Virus record (IMG/VR): IMGVR_UViG_3300012286_000299 | Location: 109,277-173,276 of that record | DNA length: 64,000 nt | Source: a virus | Taxonomy: Duplodnaviria > Heunggongvirae > Uroviricota > Caudoviricetes | Reading direction: 5' to 3' (one strand) | Shown here: one piece after another, positions 1 to 44,182 of the stretch | Position numbering within the stretch: position 1 is the stretch's first letter | Layout of the letters: each line of letters opens with the position of its first letter | Position numbers and translations under genes: made by a program | The notes under the pieces: model-generated | Told to the model about the DNA's origin: nothing | Databases searched by the model: none | What the model saw: the letters and a program-made list of their open reading frames with translations, nothing else

Positions 1-1
1 T

Positions 2-1111
2 GAATATGGTCGTGTTGATTCTTCAAGTACTAAACTAACTAAATCTATGTCACAATGGGGTTCTATCTACCGTGAAAAAACTAAAAAAGGTTACAAAGAT
101 ATAACTCATTTAGTTACTGAAAAGGTAGAAGATGATTCTACAGATGAAGTAGATGAAGTATTAGCAAAATTAGATGAAGCTAAAGTAAATGCTTTTCTAG
201 ATTTAATGCAAAAGTATACTGATGGGTTAGTTAAAAATACTTATTCGGTTACTTATAAAAGTGTAACAGTTGAGCAAGTTAAAAAAGCACAGGATATCTT
301 AAATGAATTCGATGACATTAATAAAAGCGATGAGAAGGCTGTAAACGAAAAGTTAATCGAGTTATACACTGTTATTCCCCGAAGAATGGGTAAGGTTGGT
401 GATTATTTATTACCAAGATTAGATTTAGATAAAGCCTTAGAAAAAGAACAAGATAACATTGACGCGATGTCTTCTAAAGTTCAAATGTACGAGCAAGAGA
501 AAGAAAACTCTAAACAAAATAAGGATAAAAAAGAGAAACCAAAACAAACAATGTTGGATGTTTTAGGATTATCTAAAATGGTTGAAACTAAATCTAATTC
601 TGATTTAAAGTACTTAATTGATCAAATTGGTGGTAGTAGAAGAGTTGAAGGTATATTTGAATTAGTTAAACCTGAAGAAGATAAATCATTTGATAAGTGG
701 ATGAGTGGGCAGAAAAATGTTCAAACACGAACTTTAATTCATGGAACTAGATGTTCATCAGTATTATCAATTCTTAAACAAGGTTTGAAAATCAGACCTT
801 CAGGTAACTTCCAATTTTCAGGTAAAGTATATGGGAATGGTAATTACTTCTCAGAAGTAGTACAAAAATCCTTAGGTTATACTGGATATGATAATGATAA
901 AATATTATTAGTATACGAAGTACATACAGGTAATCCATTTGTTTATGATGGTTGGTATAGAGGTAATTCATTTACTTTAGATTACAAAAACTTACAACAA
1001 CGTGGATTTGATTCAACTTACGTTAAAGCAGGTAATGGATTATTAAACAGTGAAATTATTGCCTATAAAGAGGAACAATGTAGAATTAAATATATAATTT
1101 GGTTAAAATAA
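2..1111 (+). CDS. WGR-domain / PARP-like ADP-ribosyltransferase (5' end runs off the window)
   Basis: The frame stays open upstream of the Met at 47 back to nt 2 (EYGRVDSSS...KTKKGY looks like the tail of a WGR domain). The C-terminal half carries PARP H-Y-E triad contexts: LIHGTR, GNGNYFSE, LLNSEIIAY. Confidence 0.75.
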   Translation, partial: EYGRVDSSSTKLTKSMSQWGSIYREKTKKGYKDITHLVTEKVEDDSTDEVDEVLAKLDEAKVNAFLDLMQKYTDGLVKNTYSVTYKSVTVEQVKKAQDILNEFDDINKSDEKAVNEKLIELYTVIPRRMGKVGDYLLPRLDLDKALEKEQDNIDAMSSKVQMYEQEKENSKQNKDKKEKPKQTMLDVLGLSKMVETKSNSDLKYLIDQIGGSRRVEGIFELVKPEEDKSFDKWMSGQKNVQTRTLIHGTRCSSVLSILKQGLKIRPSGNFQFSGKVYGNGNYFSEVVQKSLGYTGYDNDKILLVYEVHTGNPFVYDGWYRGNSFTLDYKNLQQRGFDSTYVKAGNGLLNSEIIAYKEEQCRIKYIIWLK

Positions 1112-1139
1112 TAAGAACTTAATAAAAACTATAAGTAAT

Positions 1140-1712
1140 ATGAAAACAAGTAAGATTAACAAAGTGTTTAAAGTAGCAAAAGGTTTGTGTAAAGCAAATA
1201 ACACAGTAACTACTCTAGAAATTAAAAATGAATTGAGAAAAAAATACTCAAAAAGAAATTGGAGACAAGATGAAATTTCTCAAGTTATGGCTGATTTCTA
1301 TTTAGAGGGTAAATTTGATTACTTAGATAATGGTACATTCAGAGTGTATTCATTAGCAGGCACTAACCCAACATCAGCTCCAGCTACACAATCTACTGTA
1401 GTAAATAAAGTTGCAAAAGTAAAAGCACCAAAAGCTCCATTAACTACACAAAGAATTTCACGTACTAAAGCTTTGGATGTTATTCAAAACTCAAATGGTA
1501 AATTCTTCACAGTAACTTTCATTAAAAAAGATGGTTCACAACGTGTAATGAATGGTCAACATACATCAGATATGGGAGTAAGTCCATTAGGTTATATTTT
1601 AGTAAAAGATATGACAGCGGTACGTAAAAAAGAAACTTCAACTGTTAAAAGTGTAAATTTACAAACTATCGAAAGCATTAAATTAAATAATGTGTTGTTT
1701 AAAGTAGATTAA
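1140..1712 (+). CDS. hypothetical protein with a basic Ala/Pro/Lys linker and a small C-terminal barrel-like domain
   Basis: ORF track. Linker is VAKVKAPKAP. FFTVTFIKKDGSQRVMNG is reminiscent of WYL_2/DUF2693-type SH3 barrels (tentative). Confidence 0.6.
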   Translation: MKTSKINKVFKVAKGLCKANNTVTTLEIKNELRKKYSKRNWRQDEISQVMADFYLEGKFDYLDNGTFRVYSLAGTNPTSAPATQSTVVNKVAKVKAPKAPLTTQRISRTKALDVIQNSNGKFFTVTFIKKDGSQRVMNGQHTSDMGVSPLGYILVKDMTAVRKKETSTVKSVNLQTIESIKLNNVLFKVD

Positions 1713-1730
1713 ATTTTAAAAATTATTCAA

Positions 1731-1758
1731 AGAGAGCTTGCTTACGCAAGCTCTTTTT
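1731..1758 (+). terminator. rho-independent terminator
   Basis: 9-bp stem AGAGCTTGC / GCAAGCTCT with loop TTAC, followed by a T run. Confidence 0.75.
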
Positions 1759-1768
1759 CGTATATTTA
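1738..1768 (+). promoter_or_regulatory. promoter, TTG-N20-TATATTTA
   Basis: TTG at 1738-1740. The 20-nt spacer contains the terminator 3' arm. TTCG-TATATTTA core. Precedes ORF 1794. Confidence 0.65.
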
Positions 1769-1793
1769 AGTATATTAATTTAAAATAAAGGTT

Positions 1794-2054
1794 ATGAAGT
1801 TTTTAAGATTTCTTTTTGGAGTTCTGATAATGCCTGTAATAGGTTGTTTAGAAATTTTTCTAGCAATAATGTTTCTATGTTGGGCATTTAGTGGATTTGG
1901 GTTAATTATGATAGCTATAGATTATACTGATCATAATCATCATTTTACTTGGGTAGGGTATAGTTTAATGGTTTTAGATGCTATAATATTAATACTGTTT
2001 CTATATGAGCATGTAACAAATGTTTACGAAAAAGTTTATAAAAATCAAAATTAA
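1794..2054 (+). CDS. small membrane protein
   Basis: ORF track; two long hydrophobic segments. Confidence 0.65.
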   Translation: MKFLRFLFGVLIMPVIGCLEIFLAIMFLCWAFSGFGLIMIAIDYTDHNHHFTWVGYSLMVLDAIILILFLYEHVTNVYEKVYKNQN

Positions 2055-2059
2055 AAGTT

Positions 2060-2413
2060 ATGTTTAAAAAATTATTCGCTTACAAACCAACAGAGCAAGA
2101 ACAGCAGTTTATAGACATTGTTAAAGATTTATTAAATCATCCTGACACTGTAGTGAGAATGTCTTTTTATTCAAGAAAGTACTTTTTGACTAACGAGAAA
2201 AAGCATTACTATATGATGCTACAATGGCCAAATGTACAAGTAACTAATACTAAGTTTTCATTTTGTAAATCAATGCATCCAAAAGCATATGATATAATTT
2301 TAAAATTAGTACATGATTATATTGAAAAAGATCGTCAAGCGTTAGAAGATCATATTTTTGCAAACGAAAATAAAATGCTTGAACAAGTAAGAACTAAATT
2401 ACAATTAGCATAA
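2060..2413 (+). CDS. hypothetical protein
   Basis: ORF track; co-oriented and tightly packed; no motif recognised. Confidence 0.6.
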   Translation: MFKKLFAYKPTEQEQQFIDIVKDLLNHPDTVVRMSFYSRKYFLTNEKKHYYMMLQWPNVQVTNTKFSFCKSMHPKAYDIILKLVHDYIEKDRQALEDHIFANENKMLEQVRTKLQLA

Positions 2414-2652
2414 TGTATACAAAAAATATTTACATAGAAGGATTTTTAACTCGTAATGGGTTTAAAAAAATGAATGAAAATGATTTTGCTAATATGAAAT
2501 GTGTTGTAAAAGTTTTTCCCAAATATTATGAAATAGTATTTAATGATGATGAATTTGGGGAAATGACAATGTATACTGATAATATTTCAATACCTCAATT
2601 AGTAGGTATTTTAACTTGGCACGGTTTAATTGATAAAGATTACAATAAATAA
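2413..2652 (+). CDS. hypothetical protein
   Basis: ORF track; TAATG stop/start coupling to the upstream ORF. Confidence 0.6.
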   Translation: MYTKNIYIEGFLTRNGFKKMNENDFANMKCVVKVFPKYYEIVFNDDEFGEMTMYTDNISIPQLVGILTWHGLIDKDYNK

Positions 2653-2927
2653 TGAGAGTAAAACATAGTAAATTTAAAGATTGTGAATTTGTCGTTAGTG
2701 TTGATACTGATGGTAAAAGTTTTACATTAGTAAAAGATCCTTATCCGGCTTATGATGTTAAACCTGATTACTACATTTATTGGAGAAATATAGGAGAAGA
2801 TATTAGAACAGCAGGAAGAACATTATTACGTACTCCTTCAGGACGTAAAGTATCACAAAGTAGAGCTACTAAAATATTACATAATATGATAGCAGCATCA
2901 AAACAACTAACATTTAGCAAATTATAA
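2652..2927 (+). CDS. hypothetical protein
   Basis: ORF track; TAATG coupling. Confidence 0.6.
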   Translation: MRVKHSKFKDCEFVVSVDTDGKSFTLVKDPYPAYDVKPDYYIYWRNIGEDIRTAGRTLLRTPSGRKVSQSRATKILHNMIAASKQLTFSKL

Positions 2928-3160
2928 TGGCAGCACTATCAGACAACAAATACGATGTATTTAATTGGATTATAAAAGTTTATGATTCATGTGAGAATGT
3001 ATCTCAAATAATAACAACAGAAAAATTAATTCGAAACTTTTATAAAATGTACGACGATTATACTTTGTATGATAAGTTACAGGACTATTATTTCGAAGTA
3101 TCAGAAAGACTACAACAAAAAGTAGATAAAAAGACTAGAAAACAAATACTAAAAGGATAA
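2927..3160 (+). CDS. hypothetical protein
   Basis: ORF track; TAATG coupling. Confidence 0.6.
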   Translation: MAALSDNKYDVFNWIIKVYDSCENVSQIITTEKLIRNFYKMYDDYTLYDKLQDYYFEVSERLQQKVDKKTRKQILKG

Positions 3161-3163
3161 ATT

Positions 3164-3565
3164 ATGACATTTATACAGAAATACGTAGACTTTATCTTAG
3201 ATAACATCATACAGGATAATATAAGAGTTCAGCTTTACAAACCTTTTGAAGATGGTTCAAGAATGATTACAAAGATAGGACCTACAGTACATTGTAAAGT
3301 AAAGATTGAAGTAATTGAAAAGTATACACGATCTGCTAAACTAAAACTGACCTTTGATAAATACGAAATCGAAGAACTATTCTTCATACCTTTCAGCTCA
3401 AGTCCAGAATCAATTGAAGGTAAGACACGAACTAAAATTGAAAAGATCGTAAATCAAACTTTCATTGACGATAACAGAACTGAGGATATAAAGCAGATGT
3501 ACGAACAACAACACAAGTTATTAGGAGAAGCACTATCAAAAATAGTAGGTAAGAAAAAAATATGA
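3164..3565 (+). CDS. hypothetical protein
   Basis: ORF track; no motif recognised. Confidence 0.6.
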   Translation: MTFIQKYVDFILDNIIQDNIRVQLYKPFEDGSRMITKIGPTVHCKVKIEVIEKYTRSAKLKLTFDKYEIEELFFIPFSSSPESIEGKTRTKIEKIVNQTFIDDNRTEDIKQMYEQQHKLLGEALSKIVGKKKI

Positions 3566-3912
3566 AGCTAGATAAACAACTCACAACATTAAATCAAGTT
3601 GCTGGTGCTATGTTTTTAGCCAACTCTAGATTTAAAACACAAGCCCATATATCTTCTCAAATGCTAAATCCTGAATGCAATGTAGATCATGAGGAAAGAG
3701 TTAGATATGAAATAATACAAAATCTATCAAAGCATGCAGTTGATACTTTCTCCAAAGAAATTAAAAAACAACAAGTACATGATGGAGAAGTACATTCACT
3801 TGAATTATTTATATTTCCAACTGAAGCATTAAAACTAGCAGTAGAGTACATTATTTCAGAAATGCCACAATCAGAAATAGACAGAATAAGAACAACACCA
3901 ATTTTTATTTAA
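3562..3912 (+). CDS. hypothetical protein
   Basis: ORF track; ATGA overlap with the upstream ORF. Confidence 0.6.
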   Translation: MKLDKQLTTLNQVAGAMFLANSRFKTQAHISSQMLNPECNVDHEERVRYEIIQNLSKHAVDTFSKEIKKQQVHDGEVHSLELFIFPTEALKLAVEYIISEMPQSEIDRIRTTPIFI

Positions 3913-3939
3913 GATTAAGTAAAATAAAATGGAAAAAGT

Positions 3940-3970
3940 TTGCTTATTTAGATTTTTCTTCGTATATTTA
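3940..3970 (+). promoter_or_regulatory. promoter, TTG-N20-TATATTTA
   Basis: TTG at 3940-3942 and a TTCGTATATTTA core. Precedes ORF 4003. Confidence 0.65.
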
Positions 3971-4002
3971 AGTATTATAAATTTAAAAAATAAATAAAAA
4001 TT

Positions 4003-4170
4003 ATGAAAAACATACACATAATACCAACTACAAAGTCAAATAAGTTGTATAAAAATCTATTAACAGATAAATTATTTATTTTAGAAAATTCATTTATGGA
4101 TGTTTCTGAATGTAATAGAGAATATCAAAACATCTACATCACTTCTGATGAAGAAATTAAAGAAGGAGAT
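4003..4170 (+). repeat. dispersed direct repeat (copy 1), high nucleotide identity to 5706-5873
   Basis: Aligned by eye with only scattered substitutions. Includes the ATG and part of the upstream AAATAAATAA leader. Confidence 0.8.
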
Positions 4171-6194: not shown

Positions 6195-6295
6195 CAGCTG
6201 TACACTTAGGATGTGATCCATCAACAATTACAGCTAATTTAAGAGGAATAACAAAAAAAGGATTCGGTTATATATGGAAAAGAAAAACAACATAG
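6176..6295 (+). pseudogene. start-less remnant of a homing-endonuclease C-terminal DNA-binding tail
   Basis: Frame 2 reads LVRTKLAAVHLGCDPSTITANLRGITKKGFGYIWKRKTT-stop with no start codon. It resembles the tail of the intact HNH gene at 25103 (ISEAQRQIGGDIKGALAGRQKTAAGFIWKYKN). It overlaps the thyA-like start. Confidence 0.55.
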
Positions 6296-7509
6296 ATTCT
6301 CAGTATATTAAGCTACTAGAGGATATTTTAGAAAATGGTATTAAAAAACAAACAAGAAATGGTGAAACTATTTCAGTATTCGGAAGACAAATACGTCACG
6401 ATATGAAAGACGGTTTTCCGTTGCTTACAACCAAGAAAATGCCGTTCAAAACAATCGTAACAGAACTTCTTTGGTTCTTACGAGGTGATACCAATATTAA
6501 GTATTTGGTTGATAATAATTGTCATATTTGGGATGGTGATGCTTATAAGAATTATATAAATACCGCACCACCTACATTAGATGGGAAGTATTTATCACAA
6601 CCAGAATTTATTCATTGGATAAAAACAGATGATGAGTTTGCTAAGAAGTGGGGTGAGTTAGGTCCAATTTACGGTAAGCAATGGAGAGATATTCCTGTAA
6701 TAAAAGATGGAGATGTAGAAGGTCATAAGATATTAAGTAGTATAGACCAAATCCAAAACCTAATCAACGACCTTAAAACAAATCCAGACTCAAGACGATT
6801 AATGGTTAATGCTTGGAATGTTGGAGAATTAGACCAAATGGTTCTTCCACCTTGTCATTATGGATTTCAAGTTTATACTAGAGAGTTGACTAAACAGGAA
6901 CGTTGGATGGCTTATTGTAATAAATGTAATGAATTAAAAACAGAATCAATTATAGGTTCTACCGATGATAAAGTAATGGAAAGTTATTATCAAGAATATA
7001 ACATACCAACACGAGCAATCTCTTTAATGTGGAATCAACGTTCAGTGGATACATTCTTAGGTTTACCATTTAATATTGCTTCTTATGGATTGTTGTTGGA
7101 AATCATTGCTGAAATCGTTAACATGGTTCCTGACCAATTGATTGGTAATCTTGGTGATACACACTTGTATTCAAATCATATTGAACAAGCAAAAGAACAG
7201 ATTGGAAGAGAGCTTAATGAAGATGAGAGATATGAATTAGTAACCCAGCAAATGAGTAAACTAAGAGCGATCAGAGATGAAGATTACATTAATTACAATA
7301 TTCCAACTAGAACAAGACAACCTTATTCTTTACCTAAAGTAAGAATCAATACTGAATTCTGGAACCCTGGTACAGAAGATGGATGTGGAATGGGACCAGG
7401 AACTTATACAAAAGATATAGGTGCTCTTGTAGAAGGAATGGAAGTAAATGATTTTCAAATTGAGGATTATCAATCACATCCAACAATCAAAGCACCCTTA
7501 TCAAATTAA
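6274..7509 (+). CDS. thyA: thymidylate synthase (ThyA) family enzyme with large insertions; a dUMP-hydroxymethylase alternative is not excluded
   Basis: Motifs LPPCH, QRSVDTFLGLPFNIASY and GDTHLYSNH. 411 aa against ~264-320 for typical ThyA. Confidence 0.85.
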   Translation: MEKKNNIDSQYIKLLEDILENGIKKQTRNGETISVFGRQIRHDMKDGFPLLTTKKMPFKTIVTELLWFLRGDTNIKYLVDNNCHIWDGDAYKNYINTAPPTLDGKYLSQPEFIHWIKTDDEFAKKWGELGPIYGKQWRDIPVIKDGDVEGHKILSSIDQIQNLINDLKTNPDSRRLMVNAWNVGELDQMVLPPCHYGFQVYTRELTKQERWMAYCNKCNELKTESIIGSTDDKVMESYYQEYNIPTRAISLMWNQRSVDTFLGLPFNIASYGLLLEIIAEIVNMVPDQLIGNLGDTHLYSNHIEQAKEQIGRELNEDERYELVTQQMSKLRAIRDEDYINYNIPTRTRQPYSLPKVRINTEFWNPGTEDGCGMGPGTYTKDIGALVEGMEVNDFQIEDYQSHPTIKAPLSN

Positions 7510-7513
7510 AAAT

Positions 7514-7735
7514 ATGACACGAACTGAAATACACCCAAACACTTTTATATTTAGTGAAATACATGAATTAGAACCAGTTTCTTTAGAAATGGTGGTTGTG
7601 GATAAACAAGATGTTGTGTTATTTGACCATAAACAAGCAGCAGAACAGTTTTTAAATACTTTCCATGAAAAAGTTTGTGATTATTTTTTAATAGAACTAG
7701 TTGAAATAATTCAACAAACTAGATTAAATAAGTAA
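7514..7735 (+). CDS. hypothetical protein
   Basis: The ORF-track frame 7448-7735 was trimmed to the ATG at 7514 (MTRTEIHP), just after the thyA stop. Confidence 0.55.
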   Translation: MTRTEIHPNTFIFSEIHELEPVSLEMVVVDKQDVVLFDHKQAAEQFLNTFHEKVCDYFLIELVEIIQQTRLNK

Positions 7736-9405: not shown

Positions 9406-9882
9406 ATGGGAAAATATCAATCAACAAAATTATTCGAGAACTACTCAGTAGCTATCAGACAATGGAAAGCACAACACTCACATTGTCAATTACTTCACGG
9501 ATATGCTTTAGAATTTAAAGTATGGTTTGAATCAATCGAACCTTTAGAAGAAAATCAATTAGACGAAATGAACTGGATCATGGACTATGGTGGGTTTAAA
9601 GAACAACCACAAGGAAACGGTTTAAAAGCATGGATGGACTATATGTGGGATCATACTCTACTAATCGAGAAAGATGATCCGCAATTAGAAACATTCCAAT
9701 ACATGCAAGAATTAGGTTTGTGTCATTTAAGAGTTATGGATAAGATTGGAGCTGAATCAGCTGCTAAACTAGTCTTCGATAAATTCAATGATGTAATGTC
9801 TAAGAATGGAGGAGGTAGAGTAAAAGTAGTAAAAGTAGAGTGCTGGGAAGCTCCTAAGAATTCATCAATTTATGGAGAGTAA
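9406..9882 (+). CDS. queD: 6-carboxytetrahydropterin synthase (QueD/PTPS family)
   Basis: HSHCQLLHGYALEF matches the QueD Cx3HG(H/Y) core. Size and neighbourhood (queE, folE) fit. Confidence 0.8.
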   Translation: MGKYQSTKLFENYSVAIRQWKAQHSHCQLLHGYALEFKVWFESIEPLEENQLDEMNWIMDYGGFKEQPQGNGLKAWMDYMWDHTLLIEKDDPQLETFQYMQELGLCHLRVMDKIGAESAAKLVFDKFNDVMSKNGGGRVKVVKVECWEAPKNSSIYGE

Positions 9883-10747
9883 ATTTCTACAAGAGAATGG
9901 TTTTTTCGATGATAATACAGGAAAAATATCTCTAGCAGATAAATTAGAAGGTAAAACAAAACAGTATATGAAATTAAAAAGAATAGAAGATTACAACAAA
10001 ATACTGCCGATAGTAGAAGTCTATACAGCAGTACAATCAGAAGGAAGTAGAGCAGGATATCCTACAGTAGTAATTCGAACAAGTGGCTGTACTCACCGCT
10101 GCTGGTTCGGTGAAGGAGGTTGGTGTGATAGTCCATACACATCAATTCATCCAGAGAAAGGGAAATATTCATTCCAGAATATAATTGAAGCATACGACAG
10201 AAATCCTCACATCACAGAGATGATGTTAACTGGAGGATCACCAACAATGCATCCAGCATTAGTAAACGAATTAACACATTTTGCACATGAAAGAGGAATT
10301 TTTATTACTATGGAAACAGAGGGATCACATTACTTGGAAACAGACTTTCCGATTAATTTACTTAGCATTAGCCCTAAGTTTTCAAATTCAATTCCAGCAT
10401 TGGGAACCCGCACTCCAGGCGGTGACATCGTTGATGAAAAGATGGTTAAACAGCATAACAAACTTAGATTAAATTATGATGCAATGTCTAAGTCAATTGC
10501 GTATCATTCTGATTATCACCTGAAACCAGTGTGGGATGGAGAGGATGAAGGAGCATTGAAAGAGATTATGGCTTGCATTAAAATTCTAGATATTCCAGAA
10601 GACAAAGTTTGGTTCATGCCAGCAGGAGATTCAAGAGAGGCTTTATTCAAATCATATCCTAAAATGTTTGATTGGGTAAGAGATAATGGATATAGATTGA
10701 CTTGGAGACCACACATCATTGCATTTGAAGATAAAAGAGAAGTATAA
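9872..10747 (+). CDS. queE: 7-carboxy-7-deazaguanine synthase (radical-SAM QueE)
   Basis: VVIRTSGCTHRCWFGEGGWCDSPYT cluster loop and GGSPTMH. Overlaps queD by 11 nt. Confidence 0.8.
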   Translation: MESKFLQENGFFDDNTGKISLADKLEGKTKQYMKLKRIEDYNKILPIVEVYTAVQSEGSRAGYPTVVIRTSGCTHRCWFGEGGWCDSPYTSIHPEKGKYSFQNIIEAYDRNPHITEMMLTGGSPTMHPALVNELTHFAHERGIFITMETEGSHYLETDFPINLLSISPKFSNSIPALGTRTPGGDIVDEKMVKQHNKLRLNYDAMSKSIAYHSDYHLKPVWDGEDEGALKEIMACIKILDIPEDKVWFMPAGDSREALFKSYPKMFDWVRDNGYRLTWRPHIIAFEDKREV

Positions 10748-13539: not shown

Positions 13540-14085
13540 ATGGATAAAAAAGTATGCAGTAAATGTAAAATTGAAAAAACTTTAGAAGAGTTTTCAATAG
13601 ATTTGTCTACTAAAAGTGGTAGAAAAAGTCAATGTAAAGAATGTAGAAAATTAATTTCTAAAAAGGAATATAAAAGTGATCCTTTATCTCATAATGTTAG
13701 AACTAGTGCTTATTATAAGGATAATAAAGAGTCTACTAGGAAGCAACAACGTGATTATGAAAGAAAACGTTTAAAAGTAGATCCCTTATTTAAATTAGGA
13801 AAATCAATGAGATGTCATTTGTATAGAATATTACAAGGACAAAAATCCATGAGTACTAAAGAATTATTAGGGTATAATGTTGAAGAATTAAAAATTCATA
13901 TTGAATCTCTTTGGGTAGAAGGAATGAATTGGGAAAATTGGGGTAAAGAATGGGAAATTGATCATATTTATCCTCTATCTCAATATTTAAAAGAAGGAGA
14001 AACTAGGCCTAGTATAATTAATAGTCTTAAAAATCTTCAACCTATAAGTAAAATTGAAAATCGAAAAAAATCAAATAAGTTATAA
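13540..14085 (+). CDS. HNH homing endonuclease (free-standing), paralogue of ORF 50911
   Basis: N-terminal CSKCK...CKEC zinc motif. C-terminal EIDHIYPLS...NLQPISKIENRKKSN. Abuts the polB start (TAATG). Confidence 0.8.
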   Translation: MDKKVCSKCKIEKTLEEFSIDLSTKSGRKSQCKECRKLISKKEYKSDPLSHNVRTSAYYKDNKESTRKQQRDYERKRLKVDPLFKLGKSMRCHLYRILQGQKSMSTKELLGYNVEELKIHIESLWVEGMNWENWGKEWEIDHIYPLSQYLKEGETRPSIINSLKNLQPISKIENRKKSNKL

Positions 14086-15812
14086 TGTATAAGAATATTG
14101 TTACGAATTCATTAGGGAAAAATAGATATAAGGTCATTTTATACACTGATGATGGAGTTGAAGAACATGAATTTCAAAATTATGCATATGAAGTGTGTAG
14201 CCAAAACCAGGCTACACATTTTGGTCTAAATGGAGAACCTTTAATGAAAACTACTTATTGGGATAAAACCAATCCCTTTATTCATTATCATGATATGCCT
14301 ATTCATCAAAAATTTTTAATTGATAAATATGGTACTAATGATGAACCCTCAACTACACATCAAGAAATATTTTTTGATATTGAGATTGAAATGGGAGGTG
14401 CTCTTACACCTGAGTACATTAGAAAAGCTCCAAAACCTGTTACTTCAATTGCTTGGTGGCATAAACAAGAAGATAAATGGTATATTTTAATTTTAGATAA
14501 AGATAATAAAATTGAAAAAACTACTATAGAGAATAAATATATTATTCCTGTACCTAACGAAAGAGAATTATTAAATAAGTGGTTAAATTATTTGAACAAA
14601 GTTAACCCTGATATCTTAATTGGCTATAATAGTGATTACTTCGATATACCTTACCTATACTATAGAATACTAAATCAATTAGGTGAACGTAGAGCTAATG
14701 CTTTCTCTCCAATAGGTAAAGTTAAAGAACAAAAACATTCAAATGAATCAGGAATGGTTTTTTGGAATGAAGAACAACCTATAAGAATAGAAGGAATGTA
14801 TTCTTTGGATTACATTCGCTTACATAAAAAATATTCGTTTGCAGATGAACCATCTTATAAATTAGATGCTTTAGGAGAAAAGTATTGTAAATTAGGTAAA
14901 ATTGAATATGAAGGTAGTTTAGACAGATTATTTGAAACTGATAAAGAAAAATTCATTGAATATAACTTTCGAGATGTTGAAATCCTAAAAGCACTTGATA
15001 ATAAATTTAATTATATTAGTTTAACTAAAAATCTAGCTCATAAGGGTAAAATCCATTATGATGATGTTTATCAATCATCTAAAATTCATGATGGAGCTAT
15101 TTCAGCATTCTTATTATCAGAAGATATAATTCCTCCTTCACGAGATAGAAACCCAATTAAAAAAGCTAATTACGCTGGTGGTTATTTGTTTTGTCCTAAA
15201 GCAGGGTTATATCGCTATATGTTTGATGAGGATTTAACTTCACTATACCCATCAATTATTATGTCTCTTAACATTGGTAAAGAAACATTAATAGGTAGAA
15301 TTATTGATTTAAATGATAGAAACAATCATTTAGGTTTAAATGATTTAATAAATGATATTGAAGATAGACCTCGTACTATGGAATGGTTTACTAATAAAGA
15401 TAAGTTCAGTAAAATTGATTGGACTTCTTCTAAAGTAGTTAAACTAATTCAACAATATAATTTGGCTATCTCAGCAAATGGTGTTATCTTTCGTACAGAT
15501 AAAGAGTCTGTATTATCAACTATTCTGAATAAGTGGTTTGATGAAAGGGTTTTATACAAAAATAAAATGAAAGCTGCATATAAAGCAGGAGATACAGTAG
15601 GTGGTGAGAAATATCATTTATTGCAATATACAATGAAAATCTTACTTAATTCACTTTATGGTGCTACAGCATTACCTTCATTTAGATATGGGAATGTAAT
15701 TCTATCAGAAGCAATCACTTTAAGTGGACAACGTATTATTCAAGAATCAGCACTTTGTGCTAACAGACATATGAACAAAGTTATTCGTGGTGAAATTAAA
15801 TTAGAGATATAA
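14085..15812 (+). CDS. family-B DNA polymerase, N-terminal piece (exonuclease domain plus motifs A and B)
   Basis: ExoI FFDIEIE, ExoII IGYNSDYFDIPYL, ExoIII YNFRDVEIL, motif A DLTSLYPSII, motif B KILLNSLYG. Stops before motif C. Confidence 0.92.
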   Translation: MYKNIVTNSLGKNRYKVILYTDDGVEEHEFQNYAYEVCSQNQATHFGLNGEPLMKTTYWDKTNPFIHYHDMPIHQKFLIDKYGTNDEPSTTHQEIFFDIEIEMGGALTPEYIRKAPKPVTSIAWWHKQEDKWYILILDKDNKIEKTTIENKYIIPVPNERELLNKWLNYLNKVNPDILIGYNSDYFDIPYLYYRILNQLGERRANAFSPIGKVKEQKHSNESGMVFWNEEQPIRIEGMYSLDYIRLHKKYSFADEPSYKLDALGEKYCKLGKIEYEGSLDRLFETDKEKFIEYNFRDVEILKALDNKFNYISLTKNLAHKGKIHYDDVYQSSKIHDGAISAFLLSEDIIPPSRDRNPIKKANYAGGYLFCPKAGLYRYMFDEDLTSLYPSIIMSLNIGKETLIGRIIDLNDRNNHLGLNDLINDIEDRPRTMEWFTNKDKFSKIDWTSSKVVKLIQQYNLAISANGVIFRTDKESVLSTILNKWFDERVLYKNKMKAAYKAGDTVGGEKYHLLQYTMKILLNSLYGATALPSFRYGNVILSEAITLSGQRIIQESALCANRHMNKVIRGEIKLEI

Positions 15813-16076: not shown

Positions 16077-17012
16077 ATGAAACATTTAGAAGATACCCCA
16101 TGGTGGATATGTGATGAAGGTGATTTTAATTTTTGTGCTTATGTTGATACAGATTCTAATTATTTCAATGCTGAGCCATTATTGAAACATTTATATCCTG
16201 ATTTTGATGAAAAAACTGATCAAGAAAAAGATGATTTATTAGAGAAAGTAGCTCTTAAGTACCAAGATATTATAACTGAACACTATGATATACTTGCTAA
16301 AGAAGCCTTTAATATTAGTACACACCGATTAGAAATGAAAACTGAGTGTGTTATTCGTTCTGCTTATTTTAGAGCTACAAGACGTTATGCTCAATGGATT
16401 ACTAAAAAAGAAGGTATAGCAAAAGAGGAATTAGACATTAAAGGATTAGAATTTAAAAAAGCTAATTTCCCTAAATATTTTGGAAAGTTTTATCAAGAAA
16501 TTCTTGAATTAATCATTAAAGGTACTTCACAGAGTATTATAGATAAGAAAATTCATGAATTTAGACAAGAAGCAACCTCAACTGATATAGATTTTACCCT
16601 TATAGGTAACCCAACATCAGTTAAAACATTAAATGAGTATATAGCTTCCCACCCTAAACCAGGTAAAATATTATCTGAAATAAAATCAGGAGCTGGTGCA
16701 TCAGTTAAAGCTTCTATCAAACATAATGATTTATTACGATTTTGGCAATTAGATTCAAAACATAGTCAAATAGTACAAGGTGATAAAGTAAAATGGGTTT
16801 ATTTAAAAAATAACCCTTATAATATAGAAGCTATTGCATTTTTAGAATTTGATATGGCTGATAAAATCAAAGACTTCATTAATGAATATATTGATAGAGG
16901 GAAAAGTTTTGAAACTATATTACAGAAAAAACTACAAGGCTTCTATGATGACCTTGAATGGATGTTACCACCAGCAAATCCACTAATACATAAATTTTTT
17001 ACATTCAACTAA
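16077..17012 (+). CDS. family-B DNA polymerase, C-terminal piece (motif C plus thumb)
   Basis: YVDTDSNYF (motif C) lies 25 aa from the start. Same reading frame as the N-terminal piece. Confidence 0.88.
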   Translation: MKHLEDTPWWICDEGDFNFCAYVDTDSNYFNAEPLLKHLYPDFDEKTDQEKDDLLEKVALKYQDIITEHYDILAKEAFNISTHRLEMKTECVIRSAYFRATRRYAQWITKKEGIAKEELDIKGLEFKKANFPKYFGKFYQEILELIIKGTSQSIIDKKIHEFRQEATSTDIDFTLIGNPTSVKTLNEYIASHPKPGKILSEIKSGAGASVKASIKHNDLLRFWQLDSKHSQIVQGDKVKWVYLKNNPYNIEAIAFLEFDMADKIKDFINEYIDRGKSFETILQKKLQGFYDDLEWMLPPANPLIHKFFTFN

Positions 17013-18890: not shown

Positions 18891-20531
18891 ATGACAGAAA
18901 CAGTATTTGGACCCGAATTAAAATCAAAACTATTAGAAGGAGTTAGAAAACTCAATAATAGTGTATCATCTACCCTAGGACCAGCAGGTAGAACAGTATT
19001 AATTAAAGGTGAGTATGGTCAATTAACCGTAACTAAAGACGGTGTATCCGTAGCTAAGGCTTTTAAAGAATTAGAAGATCCAGTAGAATCTACAGGTGCA
19101 GAATTAGTACAAAAAGTATCAGTTAAATCCGCAAATGAAGTTGGAGATGGAACAACTACAGGTACTTTATTAACCTATGCTCTTTTAGAAGAAGGTTTAA
19201 AACATGTTAATGCAGGACAAAATGCAGTAGAAATTAAAAAAGGTATTGATGCTGCTGTAGAAGAAATTAAATCCTCACTTAACAATTTAACAGAAGATAT
19301 TTCTGATAACCAACAAATTAAAGAAGTTGCTACTATTTCAGGTAATAACGATGAAGAAATTGGTAATTTAATTGCTACTGCTTTAGAAAAAGTAGGCAGA
19401 GATGGAGTAGTTGCTATTGAAGAGTCTAAATCAGGCGAAACTTCACTTGAAGTTGTAGAAGGTATGCAGTTTGATAGAGGTTACAAATCACCTTATTTTG
19501 TAACTGATAATAATACAATGACAGCTGTATTAGATAACCCATATATTTTAATTTATAATGGTAGAATTACTAACCACCAAGAATTAATTCCAGCTTTAAC
19601 TTTAGCTAACACTGAAAAACGTTCATTATTAGTAGTAGCAGAAGATATTGATGGTGAAGCATTAGCAGTAGCTATTGTTAATAAAATGAGAGGTATTGTA
19701 AATGTTGTTGCTGTTAAAGCTCCTGATTTTGGAGATCGTAGAACAATGGCTTTAGAAGATTTAGCTATTATTACAGGTGGTCAAGTTTTATCTAAAGATA
19801 AGGGGCATAAATTAGAAAAAATTGATGTTAATACCTTAAAACAATGTTTAGGTACATCTCGTACTGCTACAATTGGAAAAGAGAAAACTACTATTGTAGA
19901 TGGTAAAGGTGAAGAAGAAGCTATTACAACTAGAGCTCAAGAAATTAAAAAACAAATTGATGACGCTGGTTCACCATTTGAAAAAGAAAAATTACAAGAG
20001 CGTTTAGGTAAGATGATTGGTGGAGTAGCTATTATTAACGTAGGTGGTAATAGTGAATTAGAAATCAAAGAGAAAAAAGATAGAGTAGAAGATGCTTTAT
20101 TCGCTACAAGAGCTGCTTTAGAAGAAGGTATTGTAGTAGGTGGTGGTACTGCTTTATTATATGCTAGAAAATCTATTACATTTGAAGGTGCAAATGATTT
20201 TGTTTTAGGTAAAAAAATAGTTTATAAAGCTGTAACAGCACCCTTCCAGAAAATTTTAACTAATGCCGGACACGATCTTGTAGAAGTACAATATTTAGGT
20301 TCTAAATTAACTGATTCTGAAAAAGGAAGTAATTGGGCAGGTCTTAATTATAAAGATTTATCAACAATGGATTTCAAATCAGCAGGTATTATTGATCCTA
20401 AAAAAGTAACTCGTATTGCATTAGAAAATGCAGCATCAGTTGCAGGTACAATTTTAACAACTGAATCTGTAATCTACGAGAAAAAAGAAGACAATAAAGA
20501 AGAAATCAATCCTATGCAAGGAATGATGTAA
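18891..20531 (+). CDS. groEL: chaperonin GroEL/Cpn60
   Basis: GPAGRTVLI, VTKDGVSVAK, VGDGTTTGT, GIVVGGGTALL, and a PMQGMM tail. Confidence 0.97.
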   Translation: MTETVFGPELKSKLLEGVRKLNNSVSSTLGPAGRTVLIKGEYGQLTVTKDGVSVAKAFKELEDPVESTGAELVQKVSVKSANEVGDGTTTGTLLTYALLEEGLKHVNAGQNAVEIKKGIDAAVEEIKSSLNNLTEDISDNQQIKEVATISGNNDEEIGNLIATALEKVGRDGVVAIEESKSGETSLEVVEGMQFDRGYKSPYFVTDNNTMTAVLDNPYILIYNGRITNHQELIPALTLANTEKRSLLVVAEDIDGEALAVAIVNKMRGIVNVVAVKAPDFGDRRTMALEDLAIITGGQVLSKDKGHKLEKIDVNTLKQCLGTSRTATIGKEKTTIVDGKGEEEAITTRAQEIKKQIDDAGSPFEKEKLQERLGKMIGGVAIINVGGNSELEIKEKKDRVEDALFATRAALEEGIVVGGGTALLYARKSITFEGANDFVLGKKIVYKAVTAPFQKILTNAGHDLVEVQYLGSKLTDSEKGSNWAGLNYKDLSTMDFKSAGIIDPKKVTRIALENAASVAGTILTTESVIYEKKEDNKEEINPMQGMM

Positions 20532-23619: not shown

Positions 23620-25044
23620 ATGAAAGAAGGTTATATACCAAAAGAACAAAGAAAAAAGATATTATTCATTTGTGATGATATCAGAATGCACTCGGGTGTA
23701 GCTACAATGGCTCGAGAAATAGTTTTAGGAACCTCTCACCATTATAACTGGGTAATAATTGGAGCAGCTATTGATCATCCTGAATCAGGACAAAGATTAG
23801 ACTTATCTGATGCTACTAACAAAGAAACTGGAAATGAGGATACAAATGTAATTATCTATCCTAGTAATGGATATGGAAGTGCTGATTTAATCAGATATAT
23901 GATAAAGAATGAAAAACCTGATGGGTTAATGTTCTTTACGGATCCAAGATATTATGACTGGTTATTTGCTATCGAAAATGAAGTAAGAAAACAAATACCA
24001 ATGATTTACTTAAACATTTGGGATGATTTACCTGCTCCACTTTATAATAGAGCATTCTATGAATCATGTGATGCTTTATTAGCTATCTCAAAACAAACCA
24101 AAAACATTAATGAAATGGTTTTAGGTAAAAAAGCAGATGGTAAAGTTATCTCTTATGTACCTCATGGTATTAATGAAAAAATGTTTTATCCTATAGAAGA
24201 TAAAACACAGTTACAAGAAACTAAGAAAAAATTATTTGGAGATAAAGAATTTGATTTTGTATTATTCTTTAATTCACGTAATATTAGGAGAAAATGTACT
24301 AGTGATTTATTAGCAGCTCATAAAATGTTTTTAGATTCTTTACCTAAAGAAAAAGCTGATAAAATTGCCTTAGTATTACATACACAAGTTGTAGATAATA
24401 ATGGTACTGATTTAGATGCTGTTAGAACTTTATTATTTGGTAAGAAATCAAACATATTCTTTTCAGATCAAAGAATTGATACTGCTGAGTTAAATAGAAT
24501 TTATAATATATCTGATGCTGTAGTATTACCTTCTTCAAATGAAGGATGGGGATTAGCAATAACTGAAGCTATGATGGCTGGTAAAATGATAATCGCTAAT
24601 GTAACTGGAGGTATGCAAGATCAAATGCGTTTTGAGGATGAAAATGGTAAATGGATTGAATTAACACCTGAATTTCCTTCTAATCATTTTGGTACTTATA
24701 AAAAATGTGGTAAGTGGGCTGTACCTGTATTCCCTAATAACATGTCATTAGTAGGTTCACCTATAACTCCTTATATTTGGGATGATAGATTAGATTTTAG
24801 AGACTTAGCAAATGCTATTAATCAGGTTTATGAATTATCTCCTGAAGAAAGAGTAGAAAATGGTAAAGCAGCTAGAGAATGGGTAACTTCTGATGAATCT
24901 GGTATGAGTGCTAGAATGATGTGCAATAATGTAATTAAAGATATTGATTTAACTTTAGAAACATTTAAACCTAAAAAATCATTTGATCTACTTTTAGTAG
25001 AAGATTTGGAACCTCTAGAATTAGTTCATAAATTAACGTATTAA
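23620..25044 (+). CDS. GT-B glycosyltransferase (GT4-like)
   Basis: LPSSNEGWGLAITEAMMAGKMIIANVTGG (EX7E motif). Confidence 0.8.
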   Translation: MKEGYIPKEQRKKILFICDDIRMHSGVATMAREIVLGTSHHYNWVIIGAAIDHPESGQRLDLSDATNKETGNEDTNVIIYPSNGYGSADLIRYMIKNEKPDGLMFFTDPRYYDWLFAIENEVRKQIPMIYLNIWDDLPAPLYNRAFYESCDALLAISKQTKNINEMVLGKKADGKVISYVPHGINEKMFYPIEDKTQLQETKKKLFGDKEFDFVLFFNSRNIRRKCTSDLLAAHKMFLDSLPKEKADKIALVLHTQVVDNNGTDLDAVRTLLFGKKSNIFFSDQRIDTAELNRIYNISDAVVLPSSNEGWGLAITEAMMAGKMIIANVTGGMQDQMRFEDENGKWIELTPEFPSNHFGTYKKCGKWAVPVFPNNMSLVGSPITPYIWDDRLDFRDLANAINQVYELSPEERVENGKAAREWVTSDESGMSARMMCNNVIKDIDLTLETFKPKKSFDLLLVEDLEPLELVHKLTY

Positions 25045-25102
25045 TTAGATAAGATAAGTTTTCCATTGGGTACATATATTTATTATCATAAATACGTACC
25101 TA

Positions 25103-25774
25103 ATGGATTATCAAAGAATTTACAACCAATTAATAGAAAAAGCTCAAAGTAGAACCTTAGAAGGTTATATTGAAAAACATCATATTATCCCTAAATGTCT
25201 AGGAGGAAGTAATGATAAAGAAAATTTAGTAGAATTAACAGCAAGAGAACATTTTTTATGTCATATGTTACTTTGTGAGATTTATCCTAAAGAAAATAAA
25301 CTAAAACATGCCTTATTTTTAATGTCTATTGGTAAACAAAGGATTAAAGAAAAACATTATGTTGTTGGTTCTAGAGTTTATGAAAGGCTTAAAACTGAAT
25401 ATTCTCAATTTTTAACAGGTAAAAAACAATCACAAGAAACTAAAGATAAAAAGAGTAAAGCTATGTTAGGAATTTGGGAAGATAAAACCCAAGAAGAAAA
25501 ATCTAAGATAGGACAAAAAAGATGGGACACTAGAATCAAAAATGGGACTACTAATATTAAAAGTATTAATAGAAGTAAATCATTAAAGGGTAGAGAAATT
25601 ACATGGGACCGAGGAGTTAATAAAATCATTATTCAATATGATAAACAAAATAACTTTATTAAAGAATGGTCTAGTATATCAGAAGCTCAAAGGCAAATAG
25701 GAGGGGATATTAAAGGTGCTTTAGCAGGGAGGCAAAAAACTGCTGCAGGTTTTATTTGGAAATACAAAAACTAG
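25103..25774 (+). CDS. HNH homing endonuclease with a C-terminal HTH tail, inserted between two GT genes
   Basis: EKHHIIPKCLGGSNDKENLVELTAREH. Tail reads WSSISEAQRQIGGDIKGALAGRQKTAAGFIWKY. Confidence 0.85.
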   Translation: MDYQRIYNQLIEKAQSRTLEGYIEKHHIIPKCLGGSNDKENLVELTAREHFLCHMLLCEIYPKENKLKHALFLMSIGKQRIKEKHYVVGSRVYERLKTEYSQFLTGKKQSQETKDKKSKAMLGIWEDKTQEEKSKIGQKRWDTRIKNGTTNIKSINRSKSLKGREITWDRGVNKIIIQYDKQNNFIKEWSSISEAQRQIGGDIKGALAGRQKTAAGFIWKYKN

Positions 25775-25786
25775 TTATTATATTAA
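25756..25786 (+). promoter_or_regulatory. promoter, TTG-N20-TATATTAA
   Basis: The -33 TTG lies inside the 3' end of the HNH ORF. TATATTAA at 25779-25786. Precedes ORF 25798. Confidence 0.5.
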
Positions 25787-25797
25787 AATAAAAAAAA

Positions 25798-27105
25798 ATG
25801 AAAAATACATTTGTGATATCATGTCCCATAGATTGTTATGCAGGGTATGGAGCACGTTCACGTGATTTAGTTAAAGCGTTAATTAATTTAGATAAATACG
25901 ATGTTAAAATAATGCCTCAACGTTGGGGAAATACACCTTGGAGTTTTATTGAAGATCATCAAGAAGAATGGGGATTTTTACAACCACATATTTTAACAGG
26001 TCAGTTAACTCAACAACCTGATATTTGGGCTCAAATAACAGTACCTAATGAATTTCAAGCTATTGGAAAATATAATATTGGAATAACAGCGGGTATCGAA
26101 ACTACTATTTGTGCTCCTCAATGGATTGAGGGTATGAATAGAATGAGTTTAAATTTAGTTTCATCAGAACATGCTAAAAAAGTATTTCAAGATTCTAAAT
26201 TTCAAAAACATGATGAAAGGACTAAACAAGTTGTTGGTGTAATAGAATTAACATCTCCTATTGAAGTATTATTTGAAGGAGTAGATATTGTTAAATACTT
26301 TGCATCTACATTAACTCCTACTTCCGAAATAAAGCAAGCCTTAGATAATGTAAAAGAAGAGTTTGCATTTTTATTTGTGGGTCATTGGCTTCAAGGTGAT
26401 TGGGGTCAAGATAGAAAAGATGTAGGAGGGTTAGTTAGAGTATTCTTAGAAGCCTTTAAAAATAAATCTAAAAAACCTGCTCTTATATTAAAAACAATGT
26501 CAGGTCCAACTAGTATTATAGATAGAGATAATATCTTGAAAAAAATAGACGTTATAAGACAATCTATGCCTACTAAAAACTTACCTAATATTTACTTATT
26601 TCATGGTGAAATATCAGACGATGAAATGAATCAATTATATAACCATTCTAAAGTAAAAGCAATGGTTAGTTTTACTAAAGGAGAAGGATTTGGTAGACCT
26701 TTACTTGAATTTACTCAAACTAAAAAACCAGTTATTGCTTCAAATTGGAGTGGACAATTGGATTTCTTAAACCCTGAATTTACTTCATTAATACCTGGTA
26801 CTTTAACTAATATTCATCCATCTGCTCAAGTTAAGGATATGTTAATTGATGGTTCACAGTGGTTTACAGTAGATTATGGATTTGCTGGTGGTATATTAAG
26901 AGATTATTTTGAAAATTATAAAAAATATCAAGATAATGGTAAACGTTTAGCACATTATTGTAAAACTAATTTCTCATTTGAGAAAATGCAAGAAAAATTA
27001 GATACTATATTAACTGCTAATATACCTGAGTTTCCAAAGCAAGTGCAATTGAAATTACCTCAATTAAAAAAGGTTGAGTTACCTAAATTAAAAAAAGTAG
27101 AATAA
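25798..27105 (+). CDS. GT-B glycosyltransferase
   Basis: SFTKGEGFGRPLLEFTQTKKPVIASNWSG (EX7E-like). Confidence 0.75.
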   Translation: MKNTFVISCPIDCYAGYGARSRDLVKALINLDKYDVKIMPQRWGNTPWSFIEDHQEEWGFLQPHILTGQLTQQPDIWAQITVPNEFQAIGKYNIGITAGIETTICAPQWIEGMNRMSLNLVSSEHAKKVFQDSKFQKHDERTKQVVGVIELTSPIEVLFEGVDIVKYFASTLTPTSEIKQALDNVKEEFAFLFVGHWLQGDWGQDRKDVGGLVRVFLEAFKNKSKKPALILKTMSGPTSIIDRDNILKKIDVIRQSMPTKNLPNIYLFHGEISDDEMNQLYNHSKVKAMVSFTKGEGFGRPLLEFTQTKKPVIASNWSGQLDFLNPEFTSLIPGTLTNIHPSAQVKDMLIDGSQWFTVDYGFAGGILRDYFENYKKYQDNGKRLAHYCKTNFSFEKMQEKLDTILTANIPEFPKQVQLKLPQLKKVELPKLKKVE

Positions 27106-44180: not shown

Positions 44181-44182
44181 TT

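Follow-up and report, generated by a model that had tools for sequence, protein, structure and literature searches.

The PARP gene and its recovered 5' end

A gene for a protein of the PARP family opens the 64,000-nucleotide (nt) stretch of DNA analysed here, which is referred to as the window and corresponds to positions 109,277 to 173,276 of IMG/VR virus record IMGVR_UViG_3300012286_000299 (Caudoviricetes). It is followed on the same strand by a gene that accompanies it in related phages, and this pair is the subject of the report. The window holds the last 1110 nt of the PARP gene (positions 2-1111, + strand), which encode residues 31-399 and the stop. As the original prediction stated, the frame is open at the 5' edge of the window; it runs without a stop for 369 codons to the TAA at 1109-1111. 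Residues 1-30, whose recovery that prediction had called for, could be read as MGQYCKLVMVTEANNNKFYIMEEKNGLIHI from a contig, L003 (Logan ERR3489837_526, 13.9 kb), which was found by exact-protein look-up of the gene downstream of PARP. This contig matches window positions 1-4123 with 100% identity and 0 mismatches. Window position 1 corresponds to L003 8862 and the ATG lies 89 nt upstream of it, at L003 8773, giving a full-length protein of 399 amino acids (aa) whose numbering is used throughout. The motifs quoted in the original prediction (EYGRVDSSS, WGSIYREKTKKGY, LIHGTR, GNGNYFSE and LLNSEIIAY) were all found in the frame. The gene has a G+C content of 29.5%, close to the 29.7% of the window.

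The second gene (1140-1712, + strand) starts 28 nt after the PARP stop. It encodes a 190-aa protein composed of a winged helix and a beta-barrel, here called the partner.

Domain architecture

The encoded protein is a minimal PARP1-3-type enzyme in which a WGR domain (in its YGR variant), a helical regulatory domain (HD) and an ADP-ribosyltransferase (ART) domain with an H-Y-E triad are arranged collinearly. Chance cannot account for its sequence similarity to PARPs. The Pfam profile PF00644 (PARP) is matched with E=1.3e-16 and 61 bits against a gathering score of 26.7. PHROG 23333 is matched with E=1.7e-66, residues 1-369 of the window fragment aligning with profile positions 34-383 of 383. 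Chains of PARP1, PARP2 and PARP3 in the PDB are retrieved at E of about 1e-7 by the single sequence and at 5e-16 by the family profile, in the latter case as catalytic-fragment chains. These matches, the WGR matches given below and the alignment of the triad support the original prediction of a phage WGR-PARP with an H-Y-E active site, and the profile comparison it had proposed against the PARP and WGR families came out in favour of the PARP fold.

The family alignment (A1) comprises 46 sequences and is headed by P0001, a full-length protein with 99% identity to the window protein, whose first 30 residues agree with those read from L003. The family profile (3-339) is collinear with WGR-HD-ART chains of PARP1 (7s6h_B, 4dqy_C and residues 588-950 of full-length 9mi8_A), with whole-sequence E values of 9e-15 to 1e-12. 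H277, Y312 and E381 (codons at 740-742, 845-847 and 1052-1054) align with the PARP1 motifs HGSR, GIYFA and YNEY. An AlphaFold2 model of the protein (pLDDT 79.7, pTM 0.71) contains a four-stranded sheet with a helix (residues 4-58), a disordered acidic stretch (70-83), a five-helix bundle (90-202) and, after a short connector of low confidence, an ART core (222-399). The top Foldseek matches of this model are WGR-HD-ART chains from DNA-break complexes of PARP2 and PARP1 (E=1e-17 to 1e-16; TMq 0.70 for 4dqy_C).

The part of the WGR domain that lies in the window (residues 31-64, positions 2-103, + strand) carries Y32-G33-R34 and K56, K59, G60 and Y61. EYGRV, which had been taken for the end of a WGR domain, is the WGR motif itself in its YGR form. 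The Pfam WGR profile (PF05406) scores 21.9 bits in P0001, at a cut-off of 22, and 26.5 bits in the relative P0003, and matches 35 of the 46 family members. The sheet and helix of the model resemble the WGR domains of PARP1 and PARP2 in Foldseek. YGR is the commoner form of the motif in bacteria (García-Saura et al.; PMC5966428).

A connector follows (residues 65-89, positions 104-178, + strand), which is acidic here and disordered in the model. The HD, resembling PARP_reg, is assigned to residues 90-202 (179-517, + strand) from the profile alignment, the model and the fold match. Within it, 'YTVIPR' stands opposite 'FYTLIPHDFG' of PARP1 and 'EQDNID' opposite 'MLDNLLD' of PARP1 helix alpha-F. 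The HD-ART connector (residues 203-221, positions 518-574, + strand) holds a Lys-rich segment and varies across the family. The ART domain (residues 222-399, positions 575-1108, + strand) contains the triad H277, Y312 and E381 and the pocket residues G278, K319, S320 and Y323. In the original prediction, the region between the WGR and catalytic domains was described as one long helical linker, acidic and rich in Lys. This part of it has to be revised, as residues 90-202 are predicted to form a folded HD and the connectors are confined to residues 65-89 and 203-221. The correction matters because the HD is the autoinhibitory element of PARP1-3. Connector charge was considered as a conserved feature, possibly an acidic automodification region, but found no support, as both connectors vary in length and charge across the family.

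Conservation of the catalytic, sensor and regulatory residues

Conservation was measured in 142 full-length representatives of 50%-identity clusters, which are 30-56% identical to the query. Both H277 and Y312 are present in 142/142 sequences and E381 in 138/142. The NAD+ pocket is similarly preserved (G278 142/142, K319 139/142, S320 133/142, Y323 141/142). In the WGR domain, G33, R34 and Y61 are each found in 142/142 sequences, the first position of the motif is Y in 94 and W in 32, and 99% of sequences have a basic core (median net charge +5). In the HD, P156 and R157 are invariant (142/142 each), and E179 and D184 are found in 139/142 and 136/142. The near-invariance of triad, pocket, WGR and HD residues argues that the enzyme is under selection for catalysis as well as for its sensor and regulatory domains, and on this evidence the phage PARP is apparently active. 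The family is large, with 245 clusters at 50% identity that have E below 1e-30.

An invariant partner gene

The partner consists of a winged helix (residues 3-72), a disordered linker rich in Ala, Pro and Lys (76-93) and an SH3/WYL_2-like beta-barrel (102-189). No match was found in Pfam or NCBIfam, nor in a sequence-profile search of the PDB. Models of known anti-phage defence proteins (PADLOC) matched neither PARP nor partner at E<=1e-3. By tblastn, the partner lies on the same strand downstream of PARP in 24/24 loci, and each of 31 other flanking genes is limited to 6/24 loci or fewer. Unbiased clustering of all open reading frames (ORFs) within 6 kb recovered the partner after PARP in 22/22 non-redundant loci, including that of Cellulophaga phage phi4:1. 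The converse look-up, which started from four divergent partner homologues (35-38% identity), found a PARP gene just upstream in 4/4. The phi4:1 protein gp030 is a homologue of the partner over both domains (hhalign 99.4%, E=6e-22).

Background synteny was considered as a cause of the adjacency and is ruled out, since the partner is present in 24/24 loci and no other flanking gene in more than 6/24. Extension of the pair to all phage PARPs is likewise ruled out by four distant phage PARPs that are found without the partner.

In some loci the two genes are 0.7-2 kb apart and the gap is filled by inserted small ORFs. Homing-endonuclease-type ORFs occur within or beside the unit in three loci (L014 11237-11890, L010 12823-13245 and L007 3200-3622). 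Those of L010 and L007 are SegE-like GIY-YIG proteins, confirmed by Pfam for L010, and the one in L014 is called by motif only. The larger gaps in some loci can be attributed to insertion of such ORFs. A GP88-family gene (PF17338, about 235 aa) lies directly 3' of the partner in 8/22 loci and in L037 (e.g. L014 12643-13350 and L037 4962-5693).

The closest whole-chain fold matches of the partner are the wHTH-WYL regulators, named for the winged helix-turn-helix (wHTH) with which they begin. Like BrxR, CapW, DriD and PafBC, the partner has an N-terminal wHTH, which is followed by a predicted SH3/Sm-like barrel, and the matches to BrxR, CapW and DriD are marginal (E=6e-4 to 7e-3). By fold, its winged helix is repressor-like and resembles those of BlaI/MecI and Fur. 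DriD and PafBC respond to single-stranded DNA or DNA damage. The partner differs from these regulators in that its low-complexity linker, which is basic and in some cases carries AT hooks, takes the place of their rigid connection. A third, WCX-type dimerisation domain is absent, as nothing follows the barrel (to residue 189-190) in either the model or the alignment.

The pair as a probable transcription unit

The surroundings of the two genes suggest joint transcription. The segment L003 8500-10900 contains exactly two terminator-like hairpins, against 0.4 expected. One (L003 8717-8750) ends 23 nt before the PARP ATG and the other, near-identical to it (window 1729-1758, + strand), begins 17 nt after the partner stop; no such hairpin was found between PARP and partner. 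Each of the two hairpins is followed by TTTTCGTATATTTAA. A core motif, T[T/C]TTCGTATATTTAA, was found by motif scan in 6 copies in the window against 0.09 expected, all intergenic and all on the + strand. One copy follows the partner (1755-1769) and the others are at 3957-3971, 47448-47462, 48862-48876, 52610-52624 and 53081-53095; a further copy precedes the PARP ATG (L003 8746-8760). At the PARP unit the motif stands directly after the near-identical hairpins, and it may represent a promoter or a regulatory cassette of the phage. With hairpins outside the pair, none inside it, and the recurrent motif, the two genes have the appearance of a bicistronic unit controlled by a phage signal that recurs in the genome.

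DNA ligase in the neighbourhood

In 10/22 loci an ATP-dependent DNA ligase gene has its nearer end no more than 4 kb from PARP. It ends 5-820 nt upstream of PARP in seven loci and 3-4 kb upstream in two, and lies directly after the partner in phi4:1. Two ligase types and two gene orders are represented among these neighbours, and a ligase was also found in 2/4 of the converse look-up loci. In the window genome the ligase gene (45669-46790) is 44 kb from PARP.

That gene belongs to a cluster at 43443-46790 with genes for a CCA-adding enzyme/poly(A) polymerase and YqeY. The pair of phi4:1 is flanked by a CCA-adding enzyme and a ligase, and a YqeY-like gene lies one gene downstream of PARP in Klebsiella phage FBKp34.

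An NAD+/ADP-ribose gene island upstream of PARP

Directly upstream of window position 1, L003 carries an island of genes related to NAD+ and ADP-ribose (L003 4322-8710). Its first gene encodes a PRPS-like protein of 298 aa (L003 4322-5218; TIGR01251, 116 bits against a cut-off of 113). This is followed by a 180-aa macrodomain protein of the TARG1/OARD1-BT1257-DarG type (PDB profile E=2.6e-11, with partial matches to DarG), a 157-aa NADAR protein, a 131-aa ORF and a 154-aa Nuc_deoxyri_tr2 protein. The last gene before PARP encodes a 545-aa protein of the NAMPT family (L003 7073-8710; PF04095; NF006629, 401 bits against a cut-off of 405).

The island resembles NARP1, a pathway that rebuilds NAD+ from ADP-ribose and nicotinamide by means of the enzymes Adps and Namat and is an established anti-defence pathway (bioRxiv 10.1101/2024.02.11.579819). 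NARP1 has been recognised operationally in phages as a PRPS-family gene within 10 genes of a NAMPT-family gene (bioRxiv 10.1101/2024.02.11.579819), and in L003 the two are four genes apart. The likeness is one of gene family and spacing. Further criteria described for the pathway are membership of the Adps clade and the adenine 'selectivity clamp' that gives Namat its specificity for ADPR-PP (PMC12774641). The island of this genome differs from NARP1 in the four genes (macrodomain, NADAR, 131-aa ORF and Nuc_deoxyri_tr2) that separate the two.

In two distant relatives, L034 (954-6660) and L035 (298-6402), a PRPS-like and an NAMPT-like gene stand on either side of the PARP-partner pair. In a sister phage, L001, whose PARP is 86% identical, the island is decayed and an intact PARP gene abuts the remnants, a 130-aa PRPS-like fragment and a C-terminal NAMPT-like piece (7276-7668; about 9642-10000). 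The island was considered as a conserved neighbourhood of PARP; this is ruled out by its absence from 22/26 loci and its decay in L001.

The phage genome and its other genes

The PARP gene is resident in the genome of a large uncultured phage with a T4-type polymerase and no close cultured relative. Nearly all genes of the window are on the + strand, and they include a split T4 gp43-type PolB, GroEL, ThyA, a QueE-like enzyme, glycosyltransferases and the ATP-dependent ligase. Among the polymerases of cultured phages, the best match reaches 34% identity. Megablast of window positions 1-3000 against 50,697 phage records gave no match and no near relative, and an exact look-up of the window GroEL retrieved no record. 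Close relatives of the PARP were found on 23 IMG/VR viral contigs, mostly of 100-170 kb. When one genome from each of 185,579 prokaryotic species was scanned, a single partial copy came up, on a contig of a metagenome-assembled genome (MAG). The phage genes of the window and the 23 viral contigs bear out the claim that the gene is phage-encoded.

Several other features of the window can be noted. The polymerase is split between ORFs at 14085-15812 and 16077-17012, which are 264 nt apart and match positions 22-567 and 565-846 of PHROG 262; the arrangement may reflect a split gene or the presence of an intervening element. The thymidylate synthase (6274-7509) has 411 aa compared with 339 aa in L001, and its PHROG match extends over 282 profile positions in 410 residues, which suggests an insertion. 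The 198-aa product of 42329-42925, which has a Pfam Gad2 match (PF26128, anti-Gabija) on a contig from the same sample (L033), is likely an anti-defence protein. A QueE-like radical-SAM enzyme, phage GroEL and three glycosyltransferases are encoded at 9872-10747, 18891-20531, 23620-27105 and 35179-36384; the QueE-like enzyme, of the 7-deazaguanine pathway, suggests modified DNA. ARAGORN reports a tRNA-like gene at 55298-55367 with an odd two-base anticodon call.

From 54400 to 64000 the + strand carries many small ORFs (60-140 aa), so that coding density is reduced when only ORFs of 90 aa or longer are counted. Because of the short ORFs at 54-64 kb and a PARP homologue in a MAG labelled Absconditabacterales, stop-codon recoding was looked into. 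It does not explain the small ORFs, as recoding of TGA or TAG adds no coding coverage, and TAA is the main stop (81/95 ORFs).

Relation to known PARPs

Phage PARPs are already on record, and the window gene adds a member to a functionally uncharacterised family. Perina et al. included the phi4:1 gene in a list of viral PARPs (2014; PMC4245714), Iyer et al. drew attention to PARPs of jumbo phages (2021; PMC7824862), and a 2022 survey placed PARTs among the commonest viral ART families (PMC9503650). The GenBank annotation of the FBKp34 protein (QQV91759) names WGR, regulatory and catalytic domains. The original prediction described bacterial and phage homologues alike as essentially uncharacterised, which holds for the phage proteins but not for the bacterial ones, of which two, HaPARP of Herpetosiphon aurantiacus and CdPARP of C. 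difficile CD160, are active in vitro (PMC8120803).

The best sequence and fold matches of the phage PARP are PARP1, PARP2 and PARP3 ('clade 1'), with which it shares the collinear WGR-HD-ART arrangement and the H-Y-E triad. The PARP1 pocket residues G863, K903, S904 and Y907 all have equivalents. In the structure-based alignment (Foldseek) it is 17-19% identical to these enzymes. It differs from PARP1-3 in its size of 399 aa, in having no zinc fingers, BRCT domain or N-terminal tail, and in YGR in place of WGR, and from PARP1 in the shorter C-terminal half of its ART domain. Eukaryotic PARPs are paired with HPF1 or histones, whereas the phage enzyme is paired with a prokaryotic-type winged-helix protein.

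Bacterial clade 1 WGR-PARP_cat proteins (Cytophagales, Clostridiales) resemble the phage PARP in that they have a compact WGR-(HD)-ART form, more often YGR, and an HD that is often invisible to Pfam. The G-R and G-Y positions of the bacterial WGR are highly constrained (PMC5966428). HaPARP and CdPARP are each accompanied by their own poly(ADP-ribose) (PAR) glycohydrolase that reverses PARylation (PMC8120803), whereas the invariant neighbour of the phage PARP is the winged-helix/beta-barrel protein. Unlike bacterial PARPs, the phage subfamily is carried by phages and not by cellular genomes.

Among cultured phages, phi4:1 gp031 is 36.6% identical to the window PARP over its full length, is of the same family, as is PHROG 23333, and forms the same pair with gp030. 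It comes from another lineage (Lightbulbvirus), and its pair has the CCA-adding enzyme and ligase as neighbours, not a NARP1-like island. The PARPs of Xanthomonas phage XacN1 (BBA65562), Stenotrophomonas phage RAS14 and FBKp34 are also phage-encoded; they are 27-32% identical to the window PARP over the ART domain only, and their neighbourhoods are without the partner.

Proposed mechanism

The mechanism proposed here follows what is generally known of PARP1-3, together with the finding that HaPARP needs DNA and makes PAR (PMC8120803, PMC4245714). The basic WGR domain would bind a nucleic-acid end or nick. This binding would displace or unfold the HD, which otherwise blocks the NAD+ site, and the ART domain could then move ADP-ribose from NAD+ onto targets. 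That the WGR domain is basic and invariant and the HD conserved speaks indirectly for activation by DNA or RNA breaks. From the gene context, the PARP may act with the partner on DNA-bound substrates in phage DNA metabolism, the partner being the most likely DNA-bound substrate, recruiter or reader. The frequent linkage to ligase would place this activity in nick or break handling. In some genomes it may be coupled, as an option, to removal of ADP-ribose (macrodomain, NADAR) and to rebuilding of NAD+ (NARP1-like genes). Of the candidate roles named in the original prediction, those concerned with DNA ends thus gain some backing from the predicted DNA-binding partner and the ligase, and those concerned with NAD+ from the NARP1-like genes, macrodomain and NADAR. 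As a whole, an end-sensing WGR-HD-ART enzyme that acts with its partner on DNA-bound substrates in phage DNA transactions is considered to have about an even chance of being correct.

Several observations weigh against this proposal. With regard to the enzyme, the Pfam PARP match is confined to profile positions 24-120 of 199. PARP_reg (PF02877) was not matched in scans of the PARP or its family, and the predicted HD is based on profile and fold evidence only. Pfam likewise misses the HD in most bacterial PARPs, whose models nevertheless show it (PMC5966428). The position of PARP1 Y986 is occupied by an almost invariant Asn in the family, and, relative to PARP1, some 19 residues are missing from the segment that links the last core strands and precedes the catalytic Glu. 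The H-Y-E triad is necessary but insufficient for chain synthesis, and PARP3 and PARP4 are mono-transferases despite having it. Chain elongation is uncertain because of these mono-transferases and the Asn at the Y986 position, and whether one ADP-ribose unit or a chain is transferred cannot be told from the sequence.

With regard to the partner, matches to PF10902 (WYL_2) are below threshold (11 of 38 members, best E=0.0064), the C-terminal barrel was undetected in 5 loci, and the partner HMM found nothing near the PARPs of LR756500, XacN1, FBKp34 and RAS14. Its DNA binding is predicted from the fold, and the roles of substrate, recruiter or reader are a guess built on that prediction. With regard to context, the ligase linkage is found in only about half of the loci, this genome not among them, and NARP1-like genes are near the pair in only 4 loci, where the linkage could reflect a shared hotspot for accessory genes. 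No poly(ADP-ribose) glycohydrolase was found among the Pfam-annotated genes of L003 (8.8 kb upstream and 4 kb) or of L033 (window about 35-52 kb). What is shown, then, is the three-domain architecture, the conservation of functional residues, the invariant partner and the operon-like packaging, whereas the role given above is inferred.

Alternative explanations

The phage enzyme might instead serve host takeover in the manner of T4 Alt, ModA and ModB, modifying RNA polymerase or nucleoid, repair or recombination proteins once switched on by the ends that arise as the phage degrades or nicks host DNA, with the partner as a transcription factor that only regulates the unit or redirects transcription. 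Surveys have proposed this role for phage PARPs by analogy (PMC7824862, PMC9503650), the gene lies among small early-type genes with the recurrent intergenic motif upstream, and the repressor-like winged helix would suit a regulator. The T4-type takeover enzymes, however, belong to the R-S-E clade and are without WGR and HD sensors; the active site described here is H-Y-E, and Pfam and PHROG scans gave no similarity to Alt or Mod. About 44% of surveyed phage ARTs (PMC9503650) are fused to or beside head or packaging genes or lie in T4-like contexts, which is not the case here. As the recurrent ligase and the strictly conserved partner, a predicted DNA-binding protein, also point to DNA transactions, host takeover is rather unlikely.

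The upstream island allows for a role in counter-defence, in which the PARP would inactivate a host defence protein by ADP-ribosylation, or divert NAD+ from TIR/SIR2 signalling or DarT, while the NARP1-like enzymes keep NAD+ for the phage. In the window genome PARP comes directly after the genes of the island, from PRPS-like and macrodomain through NADAR and Nuc_deoxyri_tr2 to NAMPT-like, and L034 and L035 have the pair between PRPS-like and NAMPT-like genes. NARP1 itself counters defence, the island is variable and decayed in the sister phage, as is often the case for accessory anti-defence loci, and the Gad2-family gene shows that this phage carries anti-defence genes. This role is nevertheless rather improbable. 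Most pair loci have no NARP1-like genes nearby, and neither a constitutive NAD+ sink nor a modifier of defence proteins would have much use for a WGR-HD sensor. PARP appears independent of the island because it is kept in L001 where the island decays. The NARP papers searched do not mention PARPs.

The acceptor might also be a DNA or RNA terminus, so that phage ends or nicks are capped against host exonucleases, or host DNA ends are marked. PARP2 and PARP3 ADP-ribosylate terminal phosphates in vitro, and end recognition of the WGR type is predicted here next to a recurrent ligase. Two families of DNA-ADP-ribose hydrolases, NADAR and the DarG/TARG1-type macrodomain, are encoded 3 kb upstream of PARP in the window genome (PMC11125620). 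A simpler explanation for these two genes is that they counter host DarT toxins. Most loci do not have them, and the conserved partner is a ready protein substrate, so that modification of nucleic acid is quite improbable.

Finally, it is very improbable that the protein is an inert remnant serving only as a DNA-end binder or that a cellular gene was mis-binned as viral: the ART domain is shorter than that of PARP1, Pfam covers half of the catalytic profile and one homologue is in the Absconditabacterales-labelled MAG, but triad and NAD+ pocket are near-invariant in 142 divergent relatives, the G+C content equals that of the window, the phage context is unambiguous with no TGA recoding, and only one partial match was found in 185,579 species genomes.

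Significance

PARP-type break signalling is usually viewed as a eukaryotic invention with sporadic bacterial copies. The existence of the phage gene is unsurprising to a specialist; the family is nonetheless large, clearly under selection and unstudied. In the searchable literature, no report was found on the function of phage PARPs or on a pairing of PARP with a WYL-type protein, and no mention of the invariant partner, the recurrent ligase neighbourhood or a pair beside or inside NARP1-like genes, so the findings on partner, ligase and NARP1-like context are new relative to it. The partner, together with the cultured phage phi4:1 (gp031/gp030), makes the function directly testable. That a ligase gene recurs beside PARP suggests a function in the handling of nicks or breaks. 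The NARP1-like adjacency suggests a tie between NAD+ reconstitution by phages and a phage-encoded NAD+ consumer, a link that is not discussed in the searchable NARP literature.

A bolder version of the proposal, and a rather unlikely one as a whole, is that the pair is a phage-specific two-gene ADP-ribosylation signalling module. PARP would sense nicks or ends in phage DNA as it replicates, modify the DNA-bound partner or be recruited or read by it, and organise nick sealing by the ATP-dependent ligase of the phage. Some phages would in addition have a closed NAD+ cycle, in which PARP frees nicotinamide, the TARG1-type macrodomain frees ADP-ribose, and NARP1-like Adps and Namat rebuild NAD+ from precisely this pair of products. 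If this were true, the module would be a minimal viral counterpart of eukaryotic break signalling, and NARP1-type genes would gain a housekeeping role in fuelling a viral PARP besides counter-defence. At the level of the family, the retention of sensor, autoinhibitory domain and catalytic site means that bacterial viruses appear to use regulated ADP-ribosylation, and not only toxin-like modification.

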